A stretch of DNA of 64,000 bases from the NCBI GenBank assembly GCA_003973385.1, contig QNYK01000010.1, positions 4,519 to 68,518 of the forward strand. Reading direction: 5' to 3'. The notes beneath the pieces are model-generated. The model had not been told where the DNA came from and did not search any database. It worked only from the letters and a program-made list of their open reading frames with translations. Positions 11,136-48,359 of this stretch are shown piece after piece. A program made the position numbers and the translations under genes. The DNA comes from Bacillota bacterium. Lineage in GTDB: Bacteria; Planctomycetota; UBA8108; UBA1146. The first letter of the stretch is position 1. Each line of letters opens with the position of its first letter.

Positions 11136-11474
11136 TCAATCCTGGCCGATCGAGGAGGATTCTCCGGCTCCCAGATCCGAGGATATTTCAGTGTCTTCAT
11201 CGGCATCAAAGGTCCTGCGAAGAAACTGCCGCACCGGGCGAAAGACCGCCCCCAGCATCGCATAACGGTGCCCGGAATCCAGTCCGGCATCGATACGCGG
11301 GACCAGCCCCAGGGAATCATCGTGGCCAGTTTTTTCCCCGAACACGGGAGTCAGCAACAGCCCATCCTGATCCTCCGCCTGCGGTCTCTGAACCTGCACC
11401 AGAACAGACCGGTTCGCGACGATGCGAGCACGCGCCTGATCACCGGTAGAGGCCTCGGAACCGAAATCAGTCAT
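11136..11474 (-). CDS. Small acidic hypothetical protein (112 aa), last gene of the GspK-like operon
   Basis: The ATG forms an ATGA overlap with the stop of the upstream 316-aa gene. It has no signal peptide and is acidic. It competes with a 144-aa plus-strand ORF, which I judge less likely because it lacks coupling. Confidence 0.4.
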   Translation of the reverse strand: MTDFGSEASTGDQARARIVANRSVLVQVQRPQAEDQDGLLLTPVFGEKTGHDDSLGLVPRIDAGLDSGHRYAMLGAVFRPVRQFLRRTFDADEDTEISSDLGAGESSSIGQD

Positions 11475-12421
11475 GTGGATAATTTCGACATTTCAATCTT
11501 CTGACTCTCGCACAATCGTTCCACGGTTTTCTGGAGATTGGTGAGCCTGGTAGACCGGCAATTGATGTCGATCTTGGCTGGACTCAGATCATCAGGATCT
11601 GGACTCAGACCCAGTTCTCCGTAGAGGCTTCTCGACCTGTCAAACGACCGCTTTGCCACTGCATTGATGATCTCTACCAGGTACTTCATGTCGCGCGAGT
11701 GAGGCAACATGGTCAGCGTTTTTCTGGCTTCCTTGATCTCGCCCTGCAACTTCCTGATCGGATCTCTCACATCTTTCTTACAGAAGGCTTGCCAGCTCTT
11801 CGGATCGAACTTGCCGCCCTTCTGAAACCGGGCCCCATCGATGGACGCAGTGCGACCATCCTCGAATGCCCGCTGATGTTTCAAACTATCGCGGATCTTC
11901 GCCAGAAAAAACTCCTGCGCCTCTCCACGCACACGCTCGATGTCCTTGGCACTACCGAGGTCAAACTTGTTCTTCCAGAAGGATTGCTTCCAGGGAGCGG
12001 TGTCGACCGGGTACTTGGCCGGGTCCTTCTCCATGGCAATTTGAACCTCGCGCGGCTGGCTTCGGGGCCTGATCTCGGATCGTAATTGCAGACCAGAAAT
12101 CGATCCGTGCAACCCTTTCAACTCCACGACCTGGTCGATACGACGGGTGCCATCGAGTTCAACATTGAAGGAATAGACGATGTTGGTCCGCCAACGAATC
12201 TCGAATCCGATGATGGTCTTTGCCGGAAGGTCTGGAGCTTTTCCGACCAATCGCATGTGCCAGTCATCCTTCTTCTTTGTCGTCTGTATCGAGGTCAACT
12301 CGACAAATGTAGGTGGCGGCTTGGGTGGGCCAGAATCGTCCTGAGCTGGCAGCGGAGCTGCGCACAGGAGGACACTCAGCAGCGATGAGATCATCAGATG
12401 TGGCGATACTAGGACCTTCAT
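11471..12421 (-). CDS. Secreted hypothetical protein, paralog 2 (316 aa, signal peptide)
   Basis: N-terminal signal peptide MKVLVSPHLMISSLLSVLLCAAPLPAQD. It is clearly paralogous to the 344-aa upstream ORF (TFVELTSIQTTKKKD...IRWRTNIVYSFNVEL vs LVEFTAIEATKDEKT...LTWRSQLIQTFTMTV). It has a 4-nt overlap with its neighbour. Confidence 0.65.
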   Translation of the reverse strand: MKVLVSPHLMISSLLSVLLCAAPLPAQDDSGPPKPPPTFVELTSIQTTKKKDDWHMRLVGKAPDLPAKTIIGFEIRWRTNIVYSFNVELDGTRRIDQVVELKGLHGSISGLQLRSEIRPRSQPREVQIAMEKDPAKYPVDTAPWKQSFWKNKFDLGSAKDIERVRGEAQEFFLAKIRDSLKHQRAFEDGRTASIDGARFQKGGKFDPKSWQAFCKKDVRDPIRKLQGEIKEARKTLTMLPHSRDMKYLVEIINAVAKRSFDRSRSLYGELGLSPDPDDLSPAKIDINCRSTRLTNLQKTVERLCESQKIEMSKLST

Positions 12422-13452
12422 CCCTGGTTCTCCTCATTCTCGGGTGCAATCCCGATCAACTTGTTGATTTTCACGACGAGGTCGTTGAGGTCTGTACTTC
12501 GCGGGACTCGGCGACCGGAACGAACCTTGATCTCGAGTTTTTCAGGTTTCACATCCCTGGCAGAAGCGGGCAGACCCTGCGAGATATAGAGTTTCTTCGA
12601 TTCGTTGGTAGTCCTCTTGCCCACTGCGACCGACAACTCGAGCAAGTAGGAGAGCGCCAATCTGTGAGCGACAAATCGGGGCTCGTTGAAACCCTTTCGA
12701 ATCTCCTCCTGATAGGTCACGAGTCTCTTGATGACCTTCTTATCCATGAATTCGCGCCACTTCTTCTCGTCGAACTCACCCTTGGAGTTGACGTATTCGG
12801 TCGCCAACTCGACCGCCTTGACACCTTTTCGGACCGTGCCGTCGATCGTGGCCATCTCCGTATACCTGCTTGTGAACCACTCTCTGGTGGTATTGAGCGA
12901 CGCCTCGATCTCTTCCTTGGTCCCGAGTAAGAACTGGTGATTGAAGTGGAATTCGGTCCATGGTGCGGCGACTGCAGGAAACAGTTCTTTTTCCTTCTCG
13001 ATGGCAGTCATCACCTTTTTTGTCTGCTTCTTGGGATCGATCACGGTTCGGAACATGTACTTGTCCGCAGTCGGTTCAAGAGGTTTCACGGCAAGCTGTT
13101 CGCGAAATCGTTTGTTGCCAGGCACTGTCATGGTGAAGGTCTGGATCAACTGACTGCGCCAGGTCAAAAGCAGGTCAATTTTCGTACCTGCCGGGATCTG
13201 TGGGGTCTTCCCCAGAACGATCAGCGTATAGCGGCCCGTCTTCTCATCCTTGGTCGCTTCGATAGCTGTGAACTCGACCAGTCGCAGATCTGTTCCCCCC
13301 GGCCCCCTGCCTTCGCCTTGTGCGAGAATCACGGCTGGCAGCCACGAGAACATCACACCCAGTATCAAACCGATCCACAGGGAACTCCTGAGAACCGGTC
13401 CCGGAATGAAGTTCTCGCTCGGAGTCATCGCAGATCTCCCTGCAGGGTTCAT
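12418..13452 (-). CDS. Secreted hypothetical protein, paralog 1 (344 aa, signal peptide)
   Basis: Signal peptide/TM LWIGLILGVMFSWLPAVILAQGEG. It is a paralog of the 11471..12421 product. A TGATG overlap links it to the upstream giant gene. Confidence 0.65.
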   Translation of the reverse strand: MNPAGRSAMTPSENFIPGPVLRSSLWIGLILGVMFSWLPAVILAQGEGRGPGGTDLRLVEFTAIEATKDEKTGRYTLIVLGKTPQIPAGTKIDLLLTWRSQLIQTFTMTVPGNKRFREQLAVKPLEPTADKYMFRTVIDPKKQTKKVMTAIEKEKELFPAVAAPWTEFHFNHQFLLGTKEEIEASLNTTREWFTSRYTEMATIDGTVRKGVKAVELATEYVNSKGEFDEKKWREFMDKKVIKRLVTYQEEIRKGFNEPRFVAHRLALSYLLELSVAVGKRTTNESKKLYISQGLPASARDVKPEKLEIKVRSGRRVPRSTDLNDLVVKINKLIGIAPENEENQG

Positions 13453-16400
13453 CAGTCCATCACCTCCGTCAGCAGATACTCAGCAGACGGAAGATAAACC
13501 GACAGGGTCACATCGTCGAGAGCAGGTGTTACCAGAGCCTTGCCCGCAAAGGTACCAATTCCGGTTCCTGCACGCATCCTGAGTTCGTACGCCAGAAATC
13601 CGATGTTGAAGCGGCCAATAAAATCAGGGCTTCCCGTCGGGTACAGCCACCCCCCGGCGATCAACTGGTTATTACGGCCGCCATCGCCACGGATACCGCC
13701 TCCGGAATCTCCCAGTTGGCGGGCACTCTGCTGGCCATTGACGTTGATGACGCTCATCGTTTCGTCATTCCAATCGACCCGCTGTTGTGCGTACATCTTG
13801 GGCGAGTACATCGTCCAGGTCATGTTTCTCAGTCGCATACGCTGGATCCCATCGGGGAAGGGCACCATGAATGCTCCGGTGTAGATCCCTTCCTGGTCGG
13901 TGTAATAACCCTTCTGCCGGCTGTCATCCTGGGTGTACTGTCCAAGGTAAACGCGAAACTCATCGATGGTCGCATTCGCCAGTACGCGCTTGACCGAGGC
14001 TCCCTTGAGCAATCCCGTTGTCGTGTAGTTGGTTCCAAACTTGAACAGCCCCTCGGTGGCCACTGCCTGATCGCGGTGAAATCCAGCGATCTGGATCTGG
14101 TCCTTTGGCGCCTCCTCATTGAGAGCGCAGAACATCCCCTCGCCGATATTGTGATTGACGGCATCGACCGTTGTATGATCGACCCAGACACGGATTCCAT
14201 TGGTGGGAGAATTGTCATCATAAGCCACCGCCAGATGGTGCCACTCATGCGCCCGCCAATTCGAGATATCCACCGCCACATCAGTGCGAGCCCAGAACTT
14301 CTGAGGATCAGTTTCAGCTTCGTTGCCCTCCTCGACCTCATCCTGATTGCCGATCAGAGGGATGGCCTGGGCGGTGTATCCCTTGGCAAAAGCCTGGTGA
14401 TAGTAGAGGCGAGATACTCGAAGTTGCCCCTCCGTGTTCTTCCAGATCCAGAACTGGGAACCCTCGGAATCGGTGAGTTGCTGACCCACATTGGTCTGAA
14501 CCTGGGTGGCACCGATGAGTCCAGAAAAAGTAGGATCGTCGCCGTTGAACTCCATCTTGACCCAGAAAGAGACGGCTCCGTTGTAGTAGGGAAGATTTCC
14601 GATGTCATTGTTGTAGTTGCGGTTGACCGCCCCCTGATCGCTGGGATTCTGGCGATAGCGCTGGGCGGGCAGGCGCAGAAACCGACCTCCGAGAGCCGAA
14701 GTCCGGAACATGCTGCTATTGATGCCATCCGGCATCAGATCTGAATTCTGGGACGCCTCATCGACGAAAGGCTCGCCGATGTTCTCCTCCTCCACGGCAC
14801 TATCAGCGGCTCCCCAGACTGATTGGGAGTATCGCTGGCGGTAGATGGTGCCCTTCTGGCTGTATGTGGCATCCAGCACCTTGCCCAGTTCCTTGATCTT
14901 GGCTGTCGGATTGGAATTGGTCCGCATCAGGTTACCCAGCACGCGAAGTGATTCCTCGTCGCGGAAACGAAAGGTGTGCGCTAGCCGAAGCGTCGCTTCC
15001 CCCGACCATCGCGCAAGTCTCGCACTCGGATCCGATACCTGCATCACCGCATCGATCGCTCCGGAGAGTTCCACTCGGCCGTCCTGCCTCGATCCGGTGA
15101 AGAAGTCAGGATGCAGCGCGTCCATCGGATCGGGCCACGTGGTGATGTACTCCCGCGACCCGCCTCTGGCATTACTGGTGCGCCCGACTGCCCTGAACGG
15201 CTCCTCGAACTGCTCCTGGGTGGTATGATGATAAACTTCAAACACCTTCACGATGCTGCGCTGTTTCGATTCCGAGAAGACCTCGTTACTCGAGTTCCCT
15301 GCACCGGTGATCTCCGCAAGGCTGGTGATCTCGAAGATCCCCTTGCTGTCGAAGCAGAACTCGGTCGTGTGCCCCATCCTGACATCACTCCGGTCGCGAC
15401 CAGGGGGAAACTTGACGAGGTTCGATTTGTCGACCGCACGGTAAGCAGGAAAGTTTGGATTGACCTTGTTGATTCGAGTATTGGGATTGAAATTGGCGAT
15501 CAAGATCGAACGCATCATTTCGTAGTACCAGGCGTTATTTCGATCTGCAGGCAAACCCACATCCGAGCGCAGTCCCTGCTCCACCTGCGGAACTCCCCGC
15601 GTCCACAACTCGCGAGAACCCACATCATTGACGATCTTCGAGTAGTTGTTGTCTGTATTGGTCGATTGAGGGTTGATCACCCAGGCATTTTCGGCGTTGG
15701 GGAAGGGGAATATGTCCGGCGGCAGTCTATTGATGAAGTCCTCGAAGCCGATTTCTCCGCTGCCGACCGGCGCGGTCCAGAACTTGAAGGCTCGTTGCTT
15801 GCGCTGCCCGACGATCCCGCGAGCGATATTTCTGGCGACATCGTAGGTGAGAGGCTGAGAGTAGACCCAGACCGGAGTCTGTTGAATGCTCAGTTCCTCC
15901 CGCACTGGAGCCAATGTACCGCCACCAAAATCGATGGCTCCGACATTGCCACTCTCCAGCGATTGCGAGTTGATACTCATGTAGGGAAATGCTCGACGAC
16001 CACCCACTCCCTGCAAAGCGGCGATCAACAACGGTTCAGGGGCGGTATTGATGTTGATGGGAGCTCGCGGCTCCCCGACGACCTGAGCCGCACCGATGAC
16101 GGTCTGATTGCGCGGATCCTGAGGTAAATTTCGAGAGATCCCCGTGGCTCCCGCACCCTGACCCTGATTCGCCTGGCCCCCGACACGGTTGTTGACCTCT
16201 CGGCCGGCACCCGATCGTTGAGTGTATGGGTTGACCCAGGCATGAGCAGTGATGAAATCTGCGAGAAGGGCCAGGTTCTCGCGCCCGATCAGGGCTGCCA
16301 GCTCGGACTTTGAACTGAACAGCCCCCCGGGAAGGCGATTTCGAAATGCGATCACATCTTCGCCAAAAAGCTGCCGACCCGTTTCTCTCGGTCCGCTCCA

Positions 16401-16952
16401 CAGTGGATTTGTTCCGTAGCGAGTATCTTTCTCCAGGGCAGCCGCCAGATTGGTCAGCATCTGGGCCAGCGTATCCTGTCTGCCATTGATGTAGAGTTGC
16501 GCCGAGGTGTCGATCAACTTGACGCGGTAGCGGTCCTTGCCATCCGCTCCCCCGGCGATACCCGGGTAAGAACCCCGTGTCAGGTTGTCTCCGAGCGAGG
16601 TCTCATCCGGGGGCGCATGACGCAGATCGAGGATTCCTCCGATCCTCGACTCGCCATCGCCTCCTGTGATGCCGTAGATCCACGGAGCCCGAGCTCGGCT
16701 GGAAACGACGTATCCTTCCCAGAAGGGGCGACTCCTGAGCATCGAGATCACCTCGGACTCGGCTGAAGCGGACAGCAACTGGGCCTTGTTATGATCCCGG
16801 AAATTCTCGGTTGCTTTCAGTTCAAGGCGCATCAGAGCCACGAAAGTGACCGCGATGATCGAGATCAGTGTCAGCACAGCCAGTGCGATGAGCAACATCG
16901 ACCCGCGCTCGCGACAGGCGGGGCCATTCACCTCAGGCGTCTCTGGAAACAT
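13452..16952 (-). CDS. Giant (~1166 aa) GspK-like pseudopilin-domain protein with C-terminal LamG/concanavalin-A-like domain
   Basis: N-terminal hydrophobic segment MLLIALAVLTLISIIAVTFVALMRLE is like the T2SS minor pseudopilin GspK N-terminus. Motif ININTAPEPLLIAALQGVGG resembles the GspK helix-hairpin-helix (NxNTAs) region. The C-terminal WRAHEWHHLAVAYDDNSPTNGIRVWVDHTTVD resembles a LamG/ConA-like fold. The ATG at 16952 is preceded by GAGGAGAGGGAAAGGGAAACC, and an alternative TTG lies at 16979. Confidence 0.6.
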   Translation of the reverse strand: MFPETPEVNGPACRERGSMLLIALAVLTLISIIAVTFVALMRLELKATENFRDHNKAQLLSASAESEVISMLRSRPFWEGYVVSSRARAPWIYGITGGDGESRIGGILDLRHAPPDETSLGDNLTRGSYPGIAGGADGKDRYRVKLIDTSAQLYINGRQDTLAQMLTNLAAALEKDTRYGTNPLWSGPRETGRQLFGEDVIAFRNRLPGGLFSSKSELAALIGRENLALLADFITAHAWVNPYTQRSGAGREVNNRVGGQANQGQGAGATGISRNLPQDPRNQTVIGAAQVVGEPRAPININTAPEPLLIAALQGVGGRRAFPYMSINSQSLESGNVGAIDFGGGTLAPVREELSIQQTPVWVYSQPLTYDVARNIARGIVGQRKQRAFKFWTAPVGSGEIGFEDFINRLPPDIFPFPNAENAWVINPQSTNTDNNYSKIVNDVGSRELWTRGVPQVEQGLRSDVGLPADRNNAWYYEMMRSILIANFNPNTRINKVNPNFPAYRAVDKSNLVKFPPGRDRSDVRMGHTTEFCFDSKGIFEITSLAEITGAGNSSNEVFSESKQRSIVKVFEVYHHTTQEQFEEPFRAVGRTSNARGGSREYITTWPDPMDALHPDFFTGSRQDGRVELSGAIDAVMQVSDPSARLARWSGEATLRLAHTFRFRDEESLRVLGNLMRTNSNPTAKIKELGKVLDATYSQKGTIYRQRYSQSVWGAADSAVEEENIGEPFVDEASQNSDLMPDGINSSMFRTSALGGRFLRLPAQRYRQNPSDQGAVNRNYNNDIGNLPYYNGAVSFWVKMEFNGDDPTFSGLIGATQVQTNVGQQLTDSEGSQFWIWKNTEGQLRVSRLYYHQAFAKGYTAQAIPLIGNQDEVEEGNEAETDPQKFWARTDVAVDISNWRAHEWHHLAVAYDDNSPTNGIRVWVDHTTVDAVNHNIGEGMFCALNEEAPKDQIQIAGFHRDQAVATEGLFKFGTNYTTTGLLKGASVKRVLANATIDEFRVYLGQYTQDDSRQKGYYTDQEGIYTGAFMVPFPDGIQRMRLRNMTWTMYSPKMYAQQRVDWNDETMSVINVNGQQSARQLGDSGGGIRGDGGRNNQLIAGGWLYPTGSPDFIGRFNIGFLAYELRMRAGTGIGTFAGKALVTPALDDVTLSVYLPSAEYLLTEVMD

Positions 16953-16984
16953 GGTTTCCCTTTCCCTCTCCTCGGGCAATCCCC

Positions 16985-17007
16985 GTGAAGCACCGATGAC
17001 GCTTCAC
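16985..17007 (-). promoter_or_regulatory. Stem-loop (7-bp stem GTGAAGC/GCTTCAC, 9-nt loop) between the recA stop and the giant-gene start. No U-tract, so possibly a partial terminator or an RNA processing/attenuation element.
   Basis: A perfect inverted repeat was read directly in the sequence 19-40 nt downstream of the recA stop and overlapping the upstream region of the giant gene. Confidence 0.3.
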
Positions 17008-17025
17008 AAGGCCACTGCGATCGAC

Positions 17026-18189
17026 CTAGGCTTCCACCTCTGCCGGCGCAGTTTTCGTATCACCGGTCGTATCACCGGTCGTATCACCGGTCTTATCACC
17101 GGTCTCGTTACCATCTCCGAAGAAGCGCTGGCGTAGTTCGGTATCGAGACGGCCGGAGAGTTCTGGATGATCCCTCAGGAACTGGACAGCGCGCTCACGC
17201 CCCTGTCCGATCCGCTCCTTGCCGAGCGAGTACCAGGTTCCCGCCCTGCTCACCAGTCCCTCCTCCACACCGAGGTCGAGTATGTCTCCGTGATAGGAGA
17301 TCCCGACATTGAATATGATGTCGAACTCGGCCTTTCGAAATGGCGGGGCCATCTTGTTCTTGACGACCTTGACGACGGTACGGTTCCCACTCACATCGCC
17401 ATCGGTCTTGATGGAGCCGATACGGCGGATGTCGAGACGAATCGACGCATAGAACTTCAGCGCTCGTCCACCGGAAGTGGTCTCAGGACTGCCAAACATG
17501 ACACCGATCTTCTCGCGGATCTGATTGATGAAGACCACGGTGGTCTTGGAACGATGGATGACGCCAGTCAACTTTCGCAACGCCTGACTCATCAGTCGGG
17601 CCTGCAAGCCCATATGCGAATCCCCCATCGATCCTTCCAGTTCAGCTCGCGGAACCAGCGCTGCCACCGAATCGATGACGACGATATCCACGGCGCTCGA
17701 GGCCACCAGCATCTCGCAGATCTCGAGTGCCTGCTCACCACTGTCGGGCTGTGAGACGAGCAGATTATCCAGATCGACGCCGAGTTTCTCTGCATAGGTG
17801 GGATCGAGTGCATGCTCGGCATCGATGAAGGCCGCAACGCCACCATTCTTCTGAGCATTGGCGATGGCGTGCAGGGTCAGGGTCGTCTTTCCGGAGGCCT
17901 CCGGTCCATACACCTCGACCACTCTCGCACGAGGCAAGCCACCGATCCCCAGTGCTTTGTCGAGGGAAAGTGATCCGGTCCTGATCACATCGACCTTTCT
18001 CGACTCCTTGTCCCCCAGCATCATGATCGCACCCTGGCCGCATTTCTTGTGGATCTGCTGCAGGGCGAAGTCGAGCGCTTGCTTGCGCTGTGCGTCGAGT
18101 CCCTTGATTGAATCGGTCAGCGAAGGCTCAGCAGCCTCGGTCGATTTCTTGCTCGCTGAAGCGCGCGTCTTGCGTTGTCTGTCTACCAT
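17026..18189 (-). CDS. recA: Recombinase A with N-terminal extension and C-terminal Gly/Asp/Thr repeat tail
   Basis: [65 protein letters not shown] matches Walker A, L1/L2 and the RecA core. The ATG at 18189 is preceded by GGAGGAG. The C-terminus [16 protein letters not shown] is encoded by a 12-bp tandem repeat. Confidence 0.9.
17059..17106. repeat. 12-bp tandem repeat (ATCACCGGTCGT x4) encoding the RecA C-terminal GDTT repeat tail
   Basis: Four head-to-tail copies were read directly, in frame, inside the recA 3' end. Confidence 0.8.
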
Positions 18190-18304
18190 CTCACTCCTCC
18201 ATCCTGGCCCGAGATTCCGGCTCTCGCCGGTGGCCTTCATTCCCCCTGGAATTGTTCTCGCCTGTTGTTCGCATCATCATCTTCATCGATTCCACGGGGC
18301 TGAC

Positions 18305-18817
18305 TCAGTGGGAGCCATCCTCCCCGCTTGCTTCTTGTTGCAACGCATCGATTTCTTGTTGCAACGCCTCACGTGCTGCGTCCATCACTCGCGGACGGCC
18401 GAGTACGCGATGTCTCTGGAACTCCTCGGTTCCGTCTCGGTAGAGATCTCCTCGCTCGAGCAGCCGCTGTCGTGCCAGATCCACCTCGAATCCGGAGTTC
18501 CAGGGAATCTGCTGGAGCAGATGCAGTTGTTCCGGAGTCAGACCGCCACCCCGTGCACGAAGCCACTGCAACTGTGACCGAGCGTGCTGGGCGGGTGTAC
18601 TCCCGTTCGGTTGGGGAGCGGCACGGTAAGTCGACTGCTGACGTCCGCCGGCACAGCCGCTCGTGAATATCGGCAGCAACAGCAGCGCCACGCCACATGC
18701 CAACGATACCCATGTCGAGCTAGCCCTCCAGTTTGACCACGGATCGGATGTCAGACGCTTCACGCTGTATCCACTCCATTCCTGGAAAAACTGGACCCGC
18801 CGATTCGATGACCACAA
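18305..18817 (-). CDS. Hypothetical lipoprotein (lipobox-like FTSGC), upstream of recA
   Basis: Hydrophobic stretch VALLLLPIFTSGC followed by a Gln/Arg-rich soluble part. The true start may be internal (long n-region). Confidence 0.4.
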   Translation of the reverse strand: MWSSNRRVQFFQEWSGYSVKRLTSDPWSNWRASSTWVSLACGVALLLLPIFTSGCAGGRQQSTYRAAPQPNGSTPAQHARSQLQWLRARGGGLTPEQLHLLQQIPWNSGFEVDLARQRLLERGDLYRDGTEEFQRHRVLGRPRVMDAAREALQQEIDALQQEASGEDGSH

Positions 18818-26929: not shown

Positions 26930-28111
26930 TCAGTCTTTAAGCGAATTCGAATGCCACACGACCAGCCCGCGCAACAGGTGGCAGCCATCTCCGAAGGCCC
27001 GTTCCCACGTCTCGGTATCGCTCTCCTGCGTGTCGCCAGAGAGCAGAATCCCGGAGGGGTCCACCTCCTCGACCAGCCTTTTCTTGACCTGGCTCGCCGC
27101 AGCGAGGCAACTGTCAGCGGCCTCGGCGACCTGCTTCTTCGTCAGCAGATCGAGTGCCCGGCAACGTCCCAGCAGATCGAGGCCATGGCCCGCCAGTTTC
27201 ATGCGCGCGAGCACGGCATGCCGCGCCGCACGACGCGGCGAGATCCCCGCCGCCAGAGCTCTCTGCTCCTCGTCGAGTCGAAACTGCAACTCCCAGGAGA
27301 GGCGCCTTGTCATCAGCAACAGGCTCCTGATCACGCGATCTTGATCCGCCTCCTGCAGATATCCCGCATCGACCGACTCCGCCAGTGCTGACAGGAGGTG
27401 CATGCCACCGCAGGTGTAGGCCCAGGTGCCGGCAATCGCAGGACCCTGCATTCCATCGGGACGCTGGTCGCCCTGTTCGAGGCAACGCTTGACGACCTGA
27501 TCCGATTCCTCGACCGCCGCCACCAGGATCCTCGCCAGGGATGCCAGATCTCCATCCACAGTCGGGGTCGTGGCGGCAAGTTTCAGCACCGCAGCGGCTT
27601 CGATCAGCCATGCGAGATCATTGATCTGCTGCCAGCTTGTTGGCGTACCCTTGCGGGCGAGGGCTCGCTCGATTCGATGCTTCAGGTGCGGTGTGTGAGT
27701 CGATGGAAGCACCCAGGCTGCGGTGCGAAGCATCAGATGCGGGTGTTGCTCTCCTCGATGGCCGTCATCGCCATGGAGTGGGATCCGGGCCTTGTCGTCC
27801 TGGATCAGGTCGACCCATCTTGACCTCAGGCTGGAGAGGCGCTGGGCAGCGGGAAACGCCAGCATCAGGTGAGCCCCGGCCCATGGATCGGAACTGGCGA
27901 GACCAGCGTCAAGAATCCGCGCCGAGAAAACCGCTTCCGGTTGCACAGGGATCACTGAAGTACAGCCGATCAACAGCATCAGCAGCGTTACACCGCAGTA
28001 AAGCCCAGGCCGCCTCTGCGGCGTCAGGTCCTCTGATGGGGATCGAGATGGTGCCGCCAAGTCGCGCCTCCCTTGTGCTGGCATCAGATCGTATCGAGAT
28101 CGATGGGGCAA
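26930..28111 (-). CDS. Hypothetical lipoprotein (393 aa); weak LanC-like/alpha-toroid hints (TWAYTCGG, GDGCHLLRG)
   Basis: Lipobox LLMLLIGC. It is helical-repeat rich. The motif resemblance is speculative. Confidence 0.4.
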   Translation of the reverse strand: MPHRSRYDLMPAQGRRDLAAPSRSPSEDLTPQRRPGLYCGVTLLMLLIGCTSVIPVQPEAVFSARILDAGLASSDPWAGAHLMLAFPAAQRLSSLRSRWVDLIQDDKARIPLHGDDGHRGEQHPHLMLRTAAWVLPSTHTPHLKHRIERALARKGTPTSWQQINDLAWLIEAAAVLKLAATTPTVDGDLASLARILVAAVEESDQVVKRCLEQGDQRPDGMQGPAIAGTWAYTCGGMHLLSALAESVDAGYLQEADQDRVIRSLLLMTRRLSWELQFRLDEEQRALAAGISPRRAARHAVLARMKLAGHGLDLLGRCRALDLLTKKQVAEAADSCLAAASQVKKRLVEEVDPSGILLSGDTQESDTETWERAFGDGCHLLRGLVVWHSNSLKD

Positions 28112-33952: not shown

Positions 33953-34714
33953 CTACTCCAGGTAACGCACTTCCATCTCACCGTCCTCGATGAAGAGGTG
34001 AGCACCTCGGTCCTCAAACGCTTCCAGAACCGTGAAGGTACCGGCTCCCTCCGACTGATCCAGTTTCTCCTCGAAGGGTCGATGGTAGTGACCGCAGACG
34101 ACTCTATCGAAACCATCCTTCAGCAGGTCTCCGACAACTCTCCGGTCCGGCTCCATCAGAATCTGTGCCTTTCCCTCCAGAGATCGTCTTGAACTACGCC
34201 GTAGAATACGGGCCAACCCCTTGCACATGAACATCGGCAGGTGTCTGACCACGAACCGGAACAAGTTACTTCGGAGAACCGTGCGCAAGCGCTGGTAGCC
34301 GCGGTCTGCAGTTCCAAATAGATCGCCGTGAGAAAGGTGCCACCTCTGGCCGCCTGTCTCCAGCAACAGATGATCTCCACCGACCGCCACGCCTGTAGCC
34401 CGTTCGAAACTTGAATCGAGAAGAAAATCGCGATTGCCAGGAATCACCACCACATCGATTTCTGATTCGCAGGCGTGACGTAGCGCGTCGAGTTCACGAC
34501 GAGTCTGGGACAGGGAGATCTGGCCAGGGCCGAGCCAGACATCGAACAGATCGCCGAGCAGATAGCAGTCGGCGCCATTCTCCTGGCAACTGCGAAGCAA
34601 CTCCTCCAGCATCGCAAGCCGGCGAGCAGATCCATCGCAGTGCAGGTCGGCGGCTATGATGCACCGTTGCGATGTCGATACGCTCCCCACATCAGCAGTG
34701 CCTGGCTGGCTCAT
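33953..34714 (-). CDS. LpxH-like calcineurin-type metallophosphoesterase (UDP-2,3-diacylglucosamine diphosphatase-like)
   Basis: IAADLHCDGS and CYLLGDLFDVWLGPG match the LpxH motifs (ISDLHL / LYILGDLFEAWIGDD). It forms an ATGA overlap with the upstream ATPase gene. Confidence 0.6.
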   Translation of the reverse strand: MSQPGTADVGSVSTSQRCIIAADLHCDGSARRLAMLEELLRSCQENGADCYLLGDLFDVWLGPGQISLSQTRRELDALRHACESEIDVVVIPGNRDFLLDSSFERATGVAVGGDHLLLETGGQRWHLSHGDLFGTADRGYQRLRTVLRSNLFRFVVRHLPMFMCKGLARILRRSSRRSLEGKAQILMEPDRRVVGDLLKDGFDRVVCGHYHRPFEEKLDQSEGAGTFTVLEAFEDRGAHLFIEDGEMEVRYLE

Positions 34715-37488
34715 GCTTCCGGAATCGTCCAGTCGTCCGGATCGAAATGGGTTTCGGAGGACTTCTTCTCGCGCGGGGGAACAGATTTTTCAGATCGCTC
34801 CCTCTCTGCGGGCCGCTCCTTGACTGCCGGTGGGCGAGGTCTGGACTCTTCCTTCTGCGGTGGCGGGGAAGGTCTCGACTCTTCCTTCTGCGGTGGCGGG
34901 GAAGGTCTCGACTCTTCCTTCTGCCGTGGCGGGCGAGGTCTGGATTCTTCCTGCTGCCGTGGCGGGCGAGGTCTGGACTCTTCCTTCTGCCGTGGCGGTC
35001 GAGGTCTGGACTCTTCCTTTTGCCGTGGCGGGGACTCTGGAGGTTGCGGTCGCGGCGCCTTGCTCTTGACCGGCGGCGTCGGCTGATGCGGTGCTGGCGC
35101 CTGTGATCTGCGCCGCTCCGGTGACTCAGATCTGCGAGCTTCCTGCCGTCGCGGACGGCGTGGAGACGGAGCCGGCCCATCTTTTTTCGGGGATTTTCGA
35201 AGCGGAGGTGACAACTCCTGAGAAGGCTCACGACTGGGTGCCGAGACCTCGGGCAACGACATGTCCTCGAGGTCGATCTCGAGACGATCCGCATCCTGAT
35301 CGGTCTCTATCAACAGATCAAAACATTTGCGAGCAGCCGGGTCGAGGTCAGGATGCGTAACGATCACCTGCGAAAGTTCCCGGCTCAATCGAGGTAGCGC
35401 TTGCAGGGTGCGCAACACCCTCCCCCGATCCATGGCAGGGAATGGTTCGTCGAGGAACAGGAACTGAGGAGCTCCCGTGACGGCCCTGACAAAGGCCTGA
35501 GCGAAGGCGAGGCGAAAACCGAAGGACAATCCCTGCAAGGTTCCACCCGACAACTCATGCGTCTGAAGAAAATCACTCTTCTCTCCCGTGAAGAGGCGAA
35601 TCTCGAAGTCCGGGGTCACCTGCGCATCCCGATAGCGACCACCGGTCAGATGCGGAAGCAGGCGACAGAGCCCTTTTCCGAGACTGGGGCCGGCACGCAT
35701 TCGCACCGACTCGATGGTTTCATCGAGCAGTTCCAGTAGTAGTCGGTGAATATCCATCTCGTCGCGGATCGCCAGGGACTTCTTTCGCCGACCATCGGAA
35801 ACTTCCTCGAGAGCTCTGCGACGGCCCTCCTGATTCTGGTACTCACGAATCTCGGACTGGATACGTTCCCGCTTGGAGCGAAGTCGCTTGACCGAATCCT
35901 TGGCCTCATCGAGCGATTTTCGGCGTTCTTTCATCGTCTGGCGAACACGGTCGAGCGGGCTCTTCAACTTCTGGGCCAGGAAGTCACCGGGCTTGTCGCC
36001 CAGTTTCGTGTGAATCTCCCGTCGAGCCTTTCGTAGCGCCTCCAGTTTCTCCTGGACGCCACGAACTCGACATTCTCCGATGTCGTCACCAGGATCGAGT
36101 CCCCCCGAGGAGCGAGACAGGTGGGCGATCGTCGCTTCCAGAGAACTGGTCCCGACATCCTTCTCCATCTGCAGTCTCGACAGGATTCCCTCGGCATCGA
36201 AGATCTGCTGTCGACAGTGCGAGGCGCGTGACGAAAGCCAGCAGCCGAGCCCGAATAACAACGCTCCAGAGGCTGCAACCAGGTATCCGACTCCCGGTAC
36301 CGGAGAAATCCGCACCAGCAGCGGAATTTGCTCTCCGATTCCCCAGCCCTGTTCGTGATCGATTCCCAGCACGATGCCCGCCAGCCCGACCAGGAAGATC
36401 ACCAGTGCGCCGGCTCGGTTTCTCACCCTGGACGCGCTGATGGTATGGATGATCAGTTCCTGTTCACTCACCTCCGATTGAATCGAGCCCTCGCCGTCGC
36501 TCTCGATGCGTCGCTTCAACTGTTCCTTCGCCTCCCGCGCACTCTCTTCGAGAGAGAGGCGGATCTTGCACGCCTGGGAGACCTGATCGAGACCGTCTTG
36601 AATAGGCGTGGTGATGGAATCCTGGTCACGCAACGGCTCGGGGCTCAGATCCGCCTGGAGCAATCCAATCAGTCCATTGCATGTACGCATCGCTTCGGCA
36701 GCGTCGCTGGAATCGATCGACCGAAGTTCATGCTGAATCTTCTGCACCTCGTCACGCTTCTTCTGCTCAAGTTCCACCTGACGCTGCATCTGGCGATCGC
36801 GCGACCGCGCCTCATCGACCTTGTTGTCCCGATTCTTCAGTTCTTCCTCGAGGTCCGGAATCTTATCGATATTGGGCTGAAGCCGAGCGATGTGCAGGTC
36901 GTTGCGCTGGATCTCTTCCTGTACCCCGGTGAAATCGATCTCCAGGGCATCGAGTGCCTTATTCGCGGTTCGTCTCGCCCCTTGCAACACATCGATTCCG
37001 GCCACCCTGTCCAGGAATGTGCGGAACTGTTCCGGGGTCGTCACCGACTCCCGCTCGGCGAGATAGAAGGAGTGCATCGTTTCGCTTGCGCCGAGGTGGA
37101 AGCGCCTCTGAACCTCACGTTGCACCTGCAATGCCCCGGATGCGATCTCCTCCCCGGGTGGTGCGCCTGACTTCTCGATTCGAACCATCCGTGCGAAGGA
37201 GGTGCCGAACCGGTCCATCTCGCGCCAGATTCGATATCCCTCACCGGCGTGTTCAAAATCGAGTTCCACGACGCAGTGGTCATCATCCCAGTGGATCAGA
37301 TCGGTGATGGAACCACGCACCATGTGCTGGGTGGATCCAAACAGGGCGAACTGGAACAGCTGGCCGATACTCGACTTGCCACTCTCATTGGGCCCGACGA
37401 TGCCGATCAGGGCCCGGCGCGGAAAGTTCTCGATGCGGAGTTTCCTGAACTTCAGAAATCCCTCGGCTCGGAGGCTACGGATCAGCAA
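34711..37488 (-). CDS. SMC/SbcC/RecF-like ABC ATPase (925 aa) with long coiled coils, a central two-TM hairpin and a C-terminal Pro/Glu/Lys-rich 11-aa tandem-repeat tail
   Basis: Walker A GPNESGKSS, signature plus Walker B LSGGTLQGLSFGFRLAF...FLFLDEPFPAMD, and an H-loop VIVTHP. The central hydrophobic segments are LVIFLVGLAGIVLGI and YLVAASGALLFGLGCWL. The tail is (SRPRPPRQKEE)x6. Confidence 0.7.
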   Translation of the reverse strand: MLIRSLRAEGFLKFRKLRIENFPRRALIGIVGPNESGKSSIGQLFQFALFGSTQHMVRGSITDLIHWDDDHCVVELDFEHAGEGYRIWREMDRFGTSFARMVRIEKSGAPPGEEIASGALQVQREVQRRFHLGASETMHSFYLAERESVTTPEQFRTFLDRVAGIDVLQGARRTANKALDALEIDFTGVQEEIQRNDLHIARLQPNIDKIPDLEEELKNRDNKVDEARSRDRQMQRQVELEQKKRDEVQKIQHELRSIDSSDAAEAMRTCNGLIGLLQADLSPEPLRDQDSITTPIQDGLDQVSQACKIRLSLEESAREAKEQLKRRIESDGEGSIQSEVSEQELIIHTISASRVRNRAGALVIFLVGLAGIVLGIDHEQGWGIGEQIPLLVRISPVPGVGYLVAASGALLFGLGCWLSSRASHCRQQIFDAEGILSRLQMEKDVGTSSLEATIAHLSRSSGGLDPGDDIGECRVRGVQEKLEALRKARREIHTKLGDKPGDFLAQKLKSPLDRVRQTMKERRKSLDEAKDSVKRLRSKRERIQSEIREYQNQEGRRRALEEVSDGRRKKSLAIRDEMDIHRLLLELLDETIESVRMRAGPSLGKGLCRLLPHLTGGRYRDAQVTPDFEIRLFTGEKSDFLQTHELSGGTLQGLSFGFRLAFAQAFVRAVTGAPQFLFLDEPFPAMDRGRVLRTLQALPRLSRELSQVIVTHPDLDPAARKCFDLLIETDQDADRLEIDLEDMSLPEVSAPSREPSQELSPPLRKSPKKDGPAPSPRRPRRQEARRSESPERRRSQAPAPHQPTPPVKSKAPRPQPPESPPRQKEESRPRPPRQKEESRPRPPRQQEESRPRPPRQKEESRPSPPPQKEESRPSPPPQKEESRPRPPAVKERPAERERSEKSVPPREKKSSETHFDPDDWTIPEA
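34838..35035. repeat. 33-bp tandem repeat x6 (GGTCTGGACTCTTCCTTCTGCSGTGGCGGSSAA), in frame in the ATPase C-terminus
   Basis: Read directly. Copies start at 34838, 34871, 34904, 34937, 34970 and 35003 with few substitutions. Confidence 0.85.
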
Positions 37489-38476: not shown

Positions 38477-40561
38477 TTGAGACGCCCACTGCCGATCCTG
38501 GTCACACTTCTGCTGCTGTCGCTGACGCTCTTCGGCGCAGATCCCAAGGAATTTGAACTGCCCGGCCCTCCAGCCGCGGGGCCAGGTCGCATTCCCCATC
38601 ACCACGGCGCCATCGAATCTCTCTCCGGCATCTCCGAACTCTCCAGAGAGAACCGTTCATCGGCAGCCATGTTGTTGCGGAAGTGGCTCGAAACACGCGA
38701 TGGGCTGCTGGTGCTGCCCCCCGCGGGAGTATCGGTGGGCAGCCGCGGAACCGTCCGCATCGAGCCCGCTCATCGACAGTTGGCGCGCTTCGCCAGGTCG
38801 CTCCCCGATGGGTTCCTCGACCTCGCCCTGGAACGGTTGGCCCCGATCCCCATCGATGGAGTCCACCCATGGGTATGGCATCCGGAACAACTTCCGCAGG
38901 CCAACCACGCCTTGCACGAGGCACTCGAGCGCGCCGATCGAGCAGCGGCCTGGGCACTGCTGGAGCGACCGGGGATCGCGGTCGGGATCGATCCCGAATT
39001 ACTCCGATGGCTCGATGGCCAGGAATTGCCTCGTGGGCCGTGGCACCGGAGCGATGGCCCCCTCACCGAGGAGCCAGAACAAACAGCGGGAGGCTCGGTC
39101 GAGGGAGCGTTGACGATCCCGATGCCCAGGACCGGACCCGAACGAAAGAGAAGAATCAATTCCAGGGTCCAGCTGACCCGGCGCCATCCGCTGTCTGATC
39201 TGTTTCCGCTGATCGGCGATCGGATGGCGTTGCTCGGTAACGGCGACAGGGTCATCGCCATCGACATCGATGATCCGACGCTGGAAGCGTGGCAATGGTC
39301 GATCCATCGACCCGAGATCGATCACGCCAGCAAGGCCCCCGAGAGGCCATTGCCTCTGATCAGTGTTCCCGAGATCCCCGTCAGTAGCGGTGACCGGTGC
39401 GTATTCTTGCTCCGAACACCGCGCAAATACCACCGCCCATCGACCAATCTCATCATGGAAAGCGGACCCTGGAAGGACAAGGGATGGCTGGAAGCGGTGG
39501 TTCTCGAGATCCCCGATCCGACCAGACCGCCGGTTTCCTCCTGGGTTGCGCCCATCGCAACCGAGGGCTTCACCGCCTGCCCGACTCCGTTGATCGAAGG
39601 CGACCGGATGTGGCTGCTGGCCACTCGCGGTTGGGCCCAGCTGGAGACATGGGTGTTCGCGTTTGACCTGGCCGCTGGCAAGGAGTTGTGGCGTCGCCAG
39701 GTCGAGGTGCGGGATCTGGAAGCCCACGCACTCAATGACCTGCGCGACAAGATACTGCACGCGTCGCTGGTGCGAGATGGGGACGATCTGCTCGTGTGTC
39801 GCTCCGGCGGTGCCATCGATAGCCTGTCAGCGATCACCGGGGAGCATCAGGCAGCTCTGTACCTACCACGATGGCGGTTCGAGGAATTACCGAGTCTCAG
39901 CGACATCCGCTGGGGTCACTACCGGTTCCTCGCTTATCCAGGACTGAGACCACGATCGATGGCACCGATCCAGCGGCCCGCCGATGCCGAAACCCCGTGG
40001 CTGTTACTTCCTCCCGATGGCCGCCTGCTGATCGCACTCGACAAGGAGTCGTGGCAGATCCGCTGGAGTTATCCGACCAGCCGCCAGATGTCGCTGCTGG
40101 GCATCGTCGATGGTGTCGCCTGGCTGGTAGATCTGGCGACACCTCCGGGAACCCGGAATGTTCAGCTGGTGGGTCTGGATCCGCGCAGCGGCAGCATCGT
40201 GGCGGGACCCTGGACCATTCCACTGGAGACGGAGGATGATTCCGAGGGGAGCGCTGAATACCAGCGACACGCACCGTTGCTCAGAGGGCAACCGAGGATT
40301 TTTCCCGGACGCATCTGGTTCCCTGCAGCAAGGGGAATCGAGGTCGTATCGCTGGAGGACGGCAGCCGGATCGGCCTGCTTCCCTGGCCTGAAGGATCCA
40401 GAGGTGGCACTCCGCTACCGCTTCCAGGGGGCGAACTGTTGCTGGCTCGACGCGCAGATAGCGCACTTCCCTCCAGCAGCGTGATCGAGGTGATCCGGCC
40501 CACCGCAACAGATGAGATCAAGAAACCTGAACCGCAACAACCTGAACCGCAAAAAGATTAG
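38477..40561 (+). CDS. Secreted hypothetical protein (694 aa), probable beta-propeller (PQQ/BamB-like WxxQ repeats), C-terminal PEPQ repeats
   Basis: Signal peptide MRRPLPILVTLLLLSLTLFGA, with repeated W..(R/E) strands and a C-terminal KKPEPQQPEPQKD. Confidence 0.5.
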   Translation: MRRPLPILVTLLLLSLTLFGADPKEFELPGPPAAGPGRIPHHHGAIESLSGISELSRENRSSAAMLLRKWLETRDGLLVLPPAGVSVGSRGTVRIEPAHRQLARFARSLPDGFLDLALERLAPIPIDGVHPWVWHPEQLPQANHALHEALERADRAAAWALLERPGIAVGIDPELLRWLDGQELPRGPWHRSDGPLTEEPEQTAGGSVEGALTIPMPRTGPERKRRINSRVQLTRRHPLSDLFPLIGDRMALLGNGDRVIAIDIDDPTLEAWQWSIHRPEIDHASKAPERPLPLISVPEIPVSSGDRCVFLLRTPRKYHRPSTNLIMESGPWKDKGWLEAVVLEIPDPTRPPVSSWVAPIATEGFTACPTPLIEGDRMWLLATRGWAQLETWVFAFDLAAGKELWRRQVEVRDLEAHALNDLRDKILHASLVRDGDDLLVCRSGGAIDSLSAITGEHQAALYLPRWRFEELPSLSDIRWGHYRFLAYPGLRPRSMAPIQRPADAETPWLLLPPDGRLLIALDKESWQIRWSYPTSRQMSLLGIVDGVAWLVDLATPPGTRNVQLVGLDPRSGSIVAGPWTIPLETEDDSEGSAEYQRHAPLLRGQPRIFPGRIWFPAARGIEVVSLEDGSRIGLLPWPEGSRGGTPLPLPGGELLLARRADSALPSSSVIEVIRPTATDEIKKPEPQQPEPQKD

Positions 40562-43438: not shown

Positions 43439-44869
43439 TCAGCGCAGTTCGATGTACTGGCCGTTGTTCTGGACTGCCAGGGATCTCATGAATACCCGCA
43501 GTTTCCTCCCCGCCTGCTCGAATCCAACGGTGTTGACACGAATTCGCCGAAACCGATTCGCCTCACGCACCCACCTGAGGATGGGGACGGTATCGAGGAG
43601 CTTGTTGTCGCGACGCGGCGCTCCGTCCGAGAGCAGAAAGATCGCCTTCAGATTAGCAGCGCCAAAAGCTTCTCGGAGGGCGTGATCGGTCCAGGTTTCT
43701 CCCTGGGCATTGAACTTGCGCACGTACTGGATCGCCTCCCTCTTGCGCCTGGCCGATGCCAAGACAAGATTTTTTGACATGGCATGAACCTCGTGGTTGA
43801 AGGTGATGATATTGAACCGAACATCACCTGGCAACTTCTCGATGGTCCGGATCAGCTCATTCTGAACGCGCCGGATCCGCTGCCTCGACTCCTGCTGTGC
43901 TGGCGTTGGCGTTGGTTTTGGAGAACCATCAGGATTACCGACGTCGGTACCTCCGCCACCTCCGGGAGCGTCACCTGGATCCTCGGGCAGATCATCGACC
44001 ACTTCCATGCTTCCGGAAACATCCAGCAGGAACAGGACGTTCTTTGCCGCCACCTCCATGCCGAAGAACGCCGGCGGATCGCGCCGAACCGATGTCATGC
44101 CTTCCTTTCGCTCACTCGGATCAGGCCTTACATAGTCCTTCTTTCGGGGAGCCCAGAAATTCCTCCAGTCAGCAGCCACTCTGAAATCCTCGCCGACCAG
44201 TTTCAGCAGACACTTGCGAATCTCGTACGCGAGTAGGGTGCCACTGCGACCCACCTTCTCCTGCCTCGCCAACGCCTCGATCAGGTGGTCGACTGCGCCG
44301 AGATCATCTTTCTTGGCGAGTGCCTCGATGGCGGTCAAGGCCACCGCGTCCTCGGAATCGTAGAGGTTGGTCAGGACTGCGGTATAGGCGTCTCGTTCAG
44401 GGCGAGAGGAAAGCACCAGGGTCAGGATGACTCGCGCCGAGATTCGCTTGTCCCTTGTCGCGAGTTGACAGACCCGCTCGAATCCAGCACCTGGCTTCAA
44501 TCCGACCAGTTTGGATCCGATGTAGCGCTCGATGGCATATGAGTTGCCACCGAGACCGATCTGGACGACCGCTTCGATGGCCTTCTTGCTTCCATCGAGG
44601 ATCAGCGCATCTACCGCCCGTGAGGCCTCGTCAAAGCGGTCCTGCTGGATGGCCGAGGCGAGTTGAACTTTTGCACGGGAGATATCGCTGAGCAACGGCG
44701 CTTCGCCGGCGTCCGAGACTCCACACAGCAGAAAAATGGACACCAGGCACAGGAGAGATGCCTGTTTCTGCAGCGAAAGTTTCACGACGGCCGCAGCCCG
44801 TGCACCAATTCCCCACTCGAGGGGCGTACACAGGCTGGAGGCCGGTAGAGAGCGTATGGCGTGGGACAT
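43439..44869 (-). CDS. Secreted HEAT-repeat protein with C-terminal von Willebrand factor A domain
   Basis: Signal/TM LLCLVSIFLLCGVS, followed by HEAT-like helical repeats. The vWA MIDAS-containing segment is NVLFLLDVSGSM...ITFNHEV...IFLLSDGAP. The ATG is at 44869. Confidence 0.65.
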   Translation of the reverse strand: MSHAIRSLPASSLCTPLEWGIGARAAAVVKLSLQKQASLLCLVSIFLLCGVSDAGEAPLLSDISRAKVQLASAIQQDRFDEASRAVDALILDGSKKAIEAVVQIGLGGNSYAIERYIGSKLVGLKPGAGFERVCQLATRDKRISARVILTLVLSSRPERDAYTAVLTNLYDSEDAVALTAIEALAKKDDLGAVDHLIEALARQEKVGRSGTLLAYEIRKCLLKLVGEDFRVAADWRNFWAPRKKDYVRPDPSERKEGMTSVRRDPPAFFGMEVAAKNVLFLLDVSGSMEVVDDLPEDPGDAPGGGGGTDVGNPDGSPKPTPTPAQQESRQRIRRVQNELIRTIEKLPGDVRFNIITFNHEVHAMSKNLVLASARRKREAIQYVRKFNAQGETWTDHALREAFGAANLKAIFLLSDGAPRRDNKLLDTVPILRWVREANRFRRIRVNTVGFEQAGRKLRVFMRSLAVQNNGQYIELR

Positions 44870-45126
44870 CGCCAGCTTCCTTCCGGTGATCGGATCGAAA
44901 CGATGCCGACCCGATGGCATTGTAAACGCCTGCCCCATCGAAGGATAGCACCCAACATGCTGGTCGATTGGGCGCTTCCAGTGGATTGTCGTATTCTTTC
45001 CTGTCGGAGTGCCCCAGTGGCCACGACCCGTGGTGATGGTCTCTCGGGCGACCTCGTGGCCCGATCCTGTTTTTCGGCGTTGCCGAGCTGACTATTGCGC
45101 GCCATTCCCGTTTTGAGAGGGGGGGA

Positions 45127-48357: not shown

Positions 48358-48359
48358 CC

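Follow-up and report, generated by a model that had tools for sequence, protein, structure and literature searches.

A recA-linked operon of an uncultured marine planctomycete encodes a candidate GspK-type modular minor pseudopilin of 1,166 residues

What a pilus or pseudopilus binds or secretes is decided at the tip of the type IV filament. GspK/XcpX (PDB 3CI0 chain K and 5VTM chain X), the minor pseudopilin capping the type II secretion pseudopilus, has about 330 residues, and canonical GspK acts with GspI and GspJ. The Verru_Chthon cassette protein A (TIGR02600), of roughly 1,300 aa, belongs to a pseudopilin-like cassette of four genes found in Verrucomicrobia and Chthoniobacter; according to the TIGRFAMs description, its partners B–D carry prepilin motifs. 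Other oversized minor pilins with extra beta-rich domains are known from the literature, namely CofB/TcpB of type IVb pili and ComZ of Thermus, which are considered to be tip-located and to have a ligand-binding role. In modular type IV pilins, an N-terminal pilin module is joined to an extra module that is not specific to type IV filament biology, and pilins onto which lectin or vWA modules have been grafted form an established class, exemplified by S. sanguinis PilC (pilin plus ConA-like lectin; PDB 7OA7/7OA8) and PilB (pilin plus vWA) (PMC8179133).

The window analyzed here (the whole 64-kb stretch of DNA, from an uncultured marine planctomycete) contained four chained minus-strand genes just 3′ of recA, as the preliminary description had stated: A (13452–16952), B (12418–13452), C (11471–12421), and D (11136–11474). 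The junctions, read directly from the sequence, were cTGATGa between the stop of A and the start of B, with a 1-nt overlap at 13452, and ATGA both between B and C (12418–12421) and between C and D (11471–11474). In the ORF list, gene A started at TTG 16979, giving 1175 aa. This start was rejected in favor of ATG 16952, which was kept in 13 related loci and was preceded by a conserved GGAAAGGGAAAC purine block; the resulting length of 1166 aa matches the one first proposed. The other genes of the window were housekeeping genes.

The leader and N-terminal helix of protein A (residues 1–72; 16737–16952, minus strand) were delimited by conservation, an NCBIfam match, hhalign, and the structure model. 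A 17-aa basic leader ending in ERG is followed by SMLLIALAVLTLISIIAVTFVAL and then by a 55-residue helix, placed at residues 18–72 in the predicted model. This is a class III signal peptide of the GspK type (putative cleavage site ERG↓SMLLIALAVLTLISIIAV), with Gly at −1 and without Glu at +5; the Gly and the hydrophobic segment were conserved in all members of the A family. A search with the regular expression G[FM..][TS]LxE for the canonical N-terminal methylation motif of IPR012902 (GFTLxE) was negative for A and for the whole window. NCBIfam T2SS_GspK (NF037980) matched residues 15–74 with an E-value of 3e-8, but the score of 33.4 bits, far below the family cut-off of 130, came from the N-terminal 60 residues only. 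The N-terminal segment aligned with QRG↓VALLIVLMLL of E. coli GspK, and hhalign of the A profile against this single sequence covered 24 N-terminal residues only, with a probability of 13%.

The helix-hairpin-helix-like motif of the GspK alpha-domain was located at residues 296–317 (RAPININTAPEPLLIAALQGVGG; 16002–16067, minus strand) by homolog alignment and Pfam T2SSK, and the ININTAPEPLLIAALQGVGG string on which the comparison with GspK was originally based was present in A. Five of its residues (R296, P298, N300, N302, and A304) were invariant in 45 homologs. Pfam T2SSK (PF03934) was not reported for A itself; in A homologs its match, at positions 1–18, was to the 18-residue motif only. The predicted structure of A retained the whole GspK fold beyond the helix, with a pilin fold and an inserted alpha-domain as in solved GspK structures. 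No curated Pfam or NCBIfam model reached its threshold with A. The anticipated profile similarity to GspK was thus found at the N-terminus in weak form but remained below every curated cut-off, whereas sub-threshold yet consistent matches to GspK, T2SSK, PilX_N, and Laminin_G_3 profiles were seen across A homologs. PDB chain sequence searches with A and its 45-sequence profile gave nothing useful.

The class III signal, the long N-terminal helix, and the NxNTA motif are common to A and GspK, whereas A is 3.5-fold longer and carries about 750 extra residues after the pilin-plus-alpha-domain core. These include a large middle region (about residues 400–780) without a fold match and a ConA/LamG-like beta-sandwich at about residues 785–1050 (13803–14600, minus strand; approximate boundaries, from the strand pattern of the model). 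The sandwich was predicted to be a jelly roll of the ConA-like lectin/Laminin_G_3 (PF13385) type, and among its fold matches was the lectin module of PilC, a minor pilin of S. sanguinis. The WHHLAVAYDD...IRVWVDHT string, noted earlier as LamG/ConA-like, was found in A; the fold proposed from it was matched by the structure model, but Laminin_G_3 scored 13.7 bits against a Pfam gathering score of 27.6. The same model matched 15 of the 42 A homologs weakly, with a best E-value of 5.7e-5. A PilY1/PilC tip adhesin identity was rejected for A, in which the C-terminal beta-propeller domain (IPR008707) is absent.

With a GspK-type pilin core and a ConA/LamG module predicted in one chain, A has the composition of a modular pilin. 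It differs from the described members in that its carrier is a GspK-type pseudopilin, where those have a small canonical pilin bearing the IPR012902 motif, in its large additional middle region, and in being unlinked from pil genes. The Verru_Chthon cassette protein A is likewise very large, has a GspK-like N-terminus, and belongs to the same bacterial superphylum. TIGR02600 matched the N-terminus weakly in 39 of the 42 A homologs; with A itself, it scored 19.6 bits against a cut-off of 332, over residues 28–83 only, and distant relatives behaved likewise. This identity was also rejected, since only about 60 N-terminal residues matched and A has no prepilin-type neighbors: the cassette partners carry prepilin motifs, whereas B and C have Sec signals and beta-sandwich and helical-bundle folds.

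Gene B (minus strand) encodes a 344-aa exported protein with a signal peptide that is probably cleaved at LAQ↓GE, followed by a predicted beta-sandwich (residues 60–138) and three-helix bundle (179–291). Gene C (minus strand) encodes a 316-aa protein with its own signal peptide and the same predicted domains. The two had been described as secreted paralogs, and a comparison gave 28% identity over 290 residues (E = 1e-38). Neither matched a known family, and the structure of B offered no functional clue. Separate orthologs of B and of C were present in one related locus (L002), indicating that the duplication is old; C was present in loci where A was at least about 38% identical. Gene D (minus strand) encodes a small acidic protein of 112 aa, which has the conserved core GLVPRIDAGLDSGHRYAMLGAVFRPVRQFLRRTFD and no signal peptide. 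Its ORF stayed intact in 17 non-duplicate related loci, where the indels were in frame, and D was 55% identical over the core to the product of a 109-aa gene in locus L005. Compared with the other three proteins, D evolves at a much higher rate; judged by these sequence comparisons, it is a genuine small protein.

The A+B pair was a conserved feature of uncultured Planctomycetota: in at least 50 of the 68 loci B lay downstream of A, and the pair was kept down to 25–27% identity of A in differing genomic contexts; one locus (L031) had A without B or C. The four-gene order was conserved in relatives, so the genes are clustered and not scattered, as had been expected from the operon. Hundreds of full-length homologs were found, and the A family comprised 548 clusters at 50% identity (E ≤ 1e-30), none of which was covered by a curated model. 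A literature search covering the Verru_Chthon cassette, GspK-like proteins, and pseudopilins of planctomycetes turned up no paper on this family. The lack of above-threshold Pfam/NCBIfam matches is what would be expected if the ORFs encoded unrelated hypothetical proteins or had arisen by chance in GC-rich DNA. The homologs, the conserved gene order, and the in-frame conservation of D refute this reading, whose probability we regard as negligible, and the two structure models predicted from the operon were both confident.

We favor the explanation that A is a minor (pseudo)pilin of the GspK family, enlarged into a modular, tip-located protein displaying a lectin-like module, with B and C as its exported partners; taken as a whole, we rate this as somewhat better than an even chance. 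The leader ending in Gly would probably be removed by a prepilin peptidase encoded elsewhere, and the hydrophobic helix would anchor A in the cytoplasmic membrane. Like GspK, A would dock on top of a type IV filament, which could be a type IV pilus or the pseudopilus of a T2SS, and there the modeled beta-sandwich may act as a tip adhesin whose ligand would most probably be a glycan. B, and in this lineage C, would be made in fixed proportion with A through translational coupling and exported by the Sec pathway. Their most probable role would be to bind A, in the periplasm or at the filament tip, as chaperones or tip-complex partners, standing in for the missing GspI/GspJ-type neighbors. D may be a small cytoplasmic accessory protein. 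Counted in favor of this explanation were the overlapping start and stop codons joining the four genes, the family-wide Gly(−1)/hydrophobic N-terminus without Glu at +5, the fold match to the S. sanguinis PilC lectin together with the weak profile matches, the conservation of the A+B pair, and the existence of a modular pilin class. Counted against it were the below-cut-off models, the folds being predictions, the uninformative fold of B, and the locus without B and C, as well as the absence of GspI/GspJ and of pilin or Gsp genes nearby.

The last point concerns the machinery. The preliminary description had reported no Gsp partners, and tblastn with E. coli GspC–O indeed found nothing in the 64-kb window or in 86 related loci; no other pilin-type N-termini and no T2SS/T4P genes were detected in the window or within 8–10 kb of these loci. 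A thus lies outside any gsp operon, without GspH/I/J neighbors or genes for GspG, a secretin, an ATPase, or a platform protein, and is followed instead by the non-pilin secreted partner B. With no pilin or GspC/D/E/F/G/L/M/O near A, the loci therefore offer no candidate for a filament that A could cap. This constant orphan state would fit A lying outside any filament, its GspK-derived N-terminus being only a membrane anchor or uncleaved signal-anchor and A, B, and C forming an independent complex of the envelope or periplasm. This might, for example, be a housekeeping structure that is peculiar to this clade of planctomycetes and binds polysaccharide or is associated with the cell wall. The ordinary signal peptides of B and C agree with such a complex, as does the apparently single-copy, recA-linked A gene in a conserved housekeeping block of recA, purD, ubiA, rseP, dxr, and lgt, a setting suggestive of a core role in the cell. 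However, the invariant, strongly conserved Gly at −1 after charged residues is what a prepilin peptidase requires, the whole GspK fold is kept in the model and not the helix alone, and genes for minor pilins often lie apart from those for the machinery. We consider this reading, including the example given, unlikely but a serious contender.

The upstream neighbor (17026–18240, minus strand), which is context only, was a true RecA (PF00154, E = 2e-136). recA lay directly upstream of A, on the same strand, in every locus with upstream DNA in which A was at least 32% identical. The distance of 46 nt originally given holds up to TTG 16979 but becomes 73 nt up to the conserved ATG 16952. As described previously, the gap contains a hairpin without a U tract (GUGAAGC/GCUUCAC). 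Its role as a regulatory element was rejected, because the 101-nt stretch containing it showed no folding advantage over shuffled sequence (z = −0.98) and conservation of the hairpin reached only as far as the closest relative, L007. Because the gap is short and contains no terminator-like or promoter-like site, the A operon may here be co-transcribed with recA. This arrangement could point to a DNA-receptor tip of a competence (DNA-uptake) pilus co-expressed with recA, in which DNA would be bound, by analogy with ComZ, through the PININTA region, which resembles a helix-hairpin-helix, or through the extra domains; one A homolog had a weak ComEA-type HHH_3 match, and DNA-binding tip minor pilins have reportedly been found before. 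However, the whole neighborhood is syntenic, so that the adjacency to recA may be inherited gene order and not a functional link. More distant A+B pairs did not adjoin recA, and the gap between the aligned RecA and A regions widened to roughly 190–700 nt in distant relatives. Furthermore, the same motif occurs in GspK, where it is not known to bind DNA, and no com genes were seen in the window. A DNA receptor, with either DNA-binding part, is very unlikely in our view.

A bolder form of the favored tip-complex explanation would be that A–B(–C–D) constitutes an unrecognized type IV filament tip complex of uncultured marine Planctomycetota, in which an orphan giant GspK-type cap works with non-pilin secreted partners replacing GspI/GspJ and, in the recA-linked lineage, is expressed together with recA and forms the receptor end of a filament that serves DNA uptake or another housekeeping task; we regard this as quite unlikely. 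The strict recA linkage provides a simple, testable hypothesis on regulation. The favored explanation describes a GspK-type cap that has been enlarged 3.5-fold with a lectin-like module, stands apart from all machinery genes, is tied to a new partner protein family (B/C), and represents a large, completely unannotated family. If A caps a filament, the modular pilin principle would extend to pseudopilins, and the family would offer a way into the surface biology of planctomycete lineages that have never been cultured.

Directly downstream of recA (17026-18240, minus strand; PF00154, E = 2e-136), the four minus-strand ORFs A (13452-16952), B (12418-13452), C (11471-12421), and D (11136-11474) were chained by start/stop overlaps, as the preliminary description had claimed: the sequence read cTGATGa at the A/B junction (1-base overlap) and ATGA at both the B/C and C/D junctions (4-base overlaps). 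TTG 16979, chosen by the ORF finder as the start of A, was rejected: when the recA-A spacers of 13 related loci were aligned, both ATG 16952 and the purine-rich GGAAAGGGAAAC block just 5' of it proved to be conserved. Because of this conservation, A was assigned 1,166 amino acids, the length originally proposed, and a start 73 nt past the recA stop codon, which replaces the 46-nt gap first described. The spacer did contain the hairpin reported earlier (GUGAAGC/GCUUCAC, without a U tract); the stretch bearing it showed no folding advantage over shuffled sequence (z = -0.98), and the alignment showed no conservation of the hairpin past the nearest relative. No sigma-70-like promoter or intrinsic terminator pattern was found in the spacer. 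Downstream of D lies the convergent purD. The G+C content of the window is about 59%, and its remaining genes are housekeeping genes.

RecA consists of 404 amino acid residues, compared with 374-389 at the related loci. The 5' end of the gene (18090-18240) encodes about 50 additional residues at the N-terminus, and its 3' end (17055-17104) carries 4.2 copies of a 12-nt tandem repeat encoding a C-terminal tail that contains TGD(T/K). A 170-aa ORF directly upstream of recA (18305-18817) had no Pfam match and possibly encodes a lipoprotein, judging from its hydrophobic segment ending in SGC; an unannotated 173-aa gene occupied the matching position at L005, one of the related loci. The window also contained a minus-strand gene pair (33953-37488), one member sbcD-like (Metallophos) and the other sbcC-like (AAA_23/SMC_N, 925 aa), and two long ORFs with no Pfam match at E ≤ 0.001 (38477-40561, 694 aa; 26930-28111, 393 aa).

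Searches of curated libraries with A yielded nothing above threshold. Below threshold, A matched NCBIfam T2SS_GspK over the N-terminal 60 residues only (E = 3e-8, 33 bits against a cut-off of 130), Verru_Chthon_A (E = 1.7e-4), and Laminin_G_3 (E = 0.07). These weak signals were consistent across 42 A homologs: T2SS_GspK and Verru_Chthon_A each matched 39 of them, and Pfam T2SSK, Laminin_G_3, and PilX_N matched 26, 15, and 8, respectively, the T2SSK matches being limited to the 18 residues of the PININTA motif. The N-termini, and only these, of seven distant representatives gave below-cut-off matches to the GspK and Verru_Chthon_A models. Identification of A as the Verru_Chthon cassette A protein was rejected, because the match covers only about 60 N-terminal residues and the partners are of a different kind; PilY1 was rejected for want of a propeller.

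The N-terminus was the clearest sequence feature of the family. In all members, a variable, charged leader ended in an invariant Gly, followed by [SAT][MIV]L[IL][IV]A[LM] and a hydrophobic stretch of about 20 residues; position +5 was occupied by Ile or Val, not Glu. For homologs that gene callers started at 'MLIIAL', the xRG motif was still encoded in the DNA upstream. NEQRG/VALLIVL of E. coli K-12 GspK aligned with CRERG/SMLLIAL of A. The AlphaFold2 model of A, based on 45 homologs, was confident (mean pLDDT 84.3, pTM 0.85) and comprised an N-terminal helix of 55 residues, a mixed alpha/beta region, and a C-terminal third rich in strands. The predicted jelly roll resembled the lectin-like subdomain of botulinum and tetanus toxin Hc, laminin LG and neurexin LNS domains, pentraxins, and CBM40, and Foldseek likewise returned a jelly roll; structure comparison yielded no fold match in the middle of A (about residues 400-780). 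The initial GspK and LamG reading of A held in the predicted structure and motifs and did not hold at curated family thresholds.

B and C are divergent paralogs, as first thought (28% identity, E = 1e-38), and in a relative with an A of 50% identity B and C each had a separate ortholog, which makes the duplication an old one. Distant lineages carried only one B-like gene, of 350-490 aa. The model of B (pLDDT 83, pTM 0.70) contained a signal-like N-terminal helix, a beta-sandwich of six to seven strands (residues 60-138), and three long helices (residues 179-291); Q45-G46, at the likely LAQ/GE cleavage site, was invariant. D, which lacks a signal peptide, is a real gene: an ORF with in-frame indels persisted at its position in 17 related, non-duplicate loci, and two motifs, AR..A.R.VL and GLVP.ID.GLD.GHRF..LG.IFRP..QFLRRT, were conserved. 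D diverged much faster than A, B, or C.

Wherever A was at least 32% identical and its upstream DNA was available, recA lay directly upstream on the same strand; the estimated distance from the aligned RecA region to the A start was about 77 nt in the closest relative and reached about 700 nt in distant ones. A was followed by B, C and D where present, and then by convergent purD and ubiA. Below about 31% identity, the recA link was gone and a B-family gene still lay 3' of A. The B HMM matched 3' of A in at least 50 of the 68 loci with room, and other searches found a B-family gene after A at L075, L084, L086, L039, L045, and L046; the genes are clustered rather than scattered. The adjacency to recA is striking and might suggest that A is a DNA receptor of a competence pilus, co-expressed with recA; however, the entire block is syntenic and recA is absent beside the distant A+B pairs, and we regard this role as improbable.

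At L031 (8001-13143), where A is 44% identical, convergent purD comes directly after A, and genes B and C are absent; the partner was either lost or moved elsewhere. Distant members occurred in several copies per genome, some in tandem (L077, at 444 and 5927), as in the MAGs OFTM393 (L067, L072, L082), NC_groundwater_1472 (L066, L077), and NC_groundwater_805 (L069, L079). The recA-linked form seems to be single-copy. Distant A+B loci often had VWA/HEAT proteins and small secreted VWA-like proteins nearby. At L084 (15049-16764) and L003 (8685-9839), small secreted proteins with VWA MIDAS-like motifs (DRSGSM/DRTGSM) flanked the A+B pair, which they and VWA/HEAT proteins immediately adjoined; the two at L084 were tandem paralogs with 61% identity. 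A cluster in the window (43439-50483) encodes a minus-strand VWA protein of 499 aa, a protein of 707 aa without a Pfam match, a HEAT-repeat protein, and a TPR protein. At L086, a partial ORF (3-641) preceding a distant A homolog had its own LamG-like sequence (WHHIVG...VYVDG...DDVRVYNRPL).

The model with the best support casts A as a modular minor pseudopilin and B and C as its exported partners. A prepilin peptidase encoded elsewhere would process A at Gly17, and the N-terminal helix would insert A atop a type IV filament in a GspK-like manner. The tip would thereby display the lectin-like module, which may bind a ligand, and about 400 residues without a fold match. B and C would be exported and may bind A, their synthesis being kept in step with that of A by translational coupling. 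The main weakness of the filament model is that neither filament machinery nor a companion pilin is linked to any copy of A. No other pilin-type N-terminus was found in the window or any related locus, and tblastn with E. coli GspC, D, E, F, G, H, I, J, K, L, M, and O detected no homolog there, which bears out the early remark that Gsp partners are not nearby. With such genes missing from its surroundings, A might instead belong to a membrane-anchored envelope complex outside any filament, which we consider rather unlikely. As a modular minor pseudopilin, A would fit the known principle of pilins bearing grafted lectin (PF13385) or vWA modules; the paper on this principle names GspK itself as a pilin into which a domain is inserted (PMC8179133). 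By analogy, A may be likened to GspK and to modular pilins such as S. sanguinis PilC; it falls outside GspK on model score and operon context.

Full-length A homologs came solely from uncultured Planctomycetota MAGs and metagenomes. A word-indexed search gave 61 clusters, and 154 stretches were confirmed in GTDB species representatives. An exhaustive HMMER search of 1.84 billion representatives assigned 548 clusters to the family at E ≤ 1e-30 and 1,134 at E ≤ 1e-10; among the 150 best matches, full-length members were mostly about 850-1,600 aa. The family is large, and it is unannotated. New here is a giant orphan GspK-type protein, a putative cap, that carries a lectin-like module and is paired with a novel partner family of its own; in one planctomycete lineage, it is fixed beside recA.
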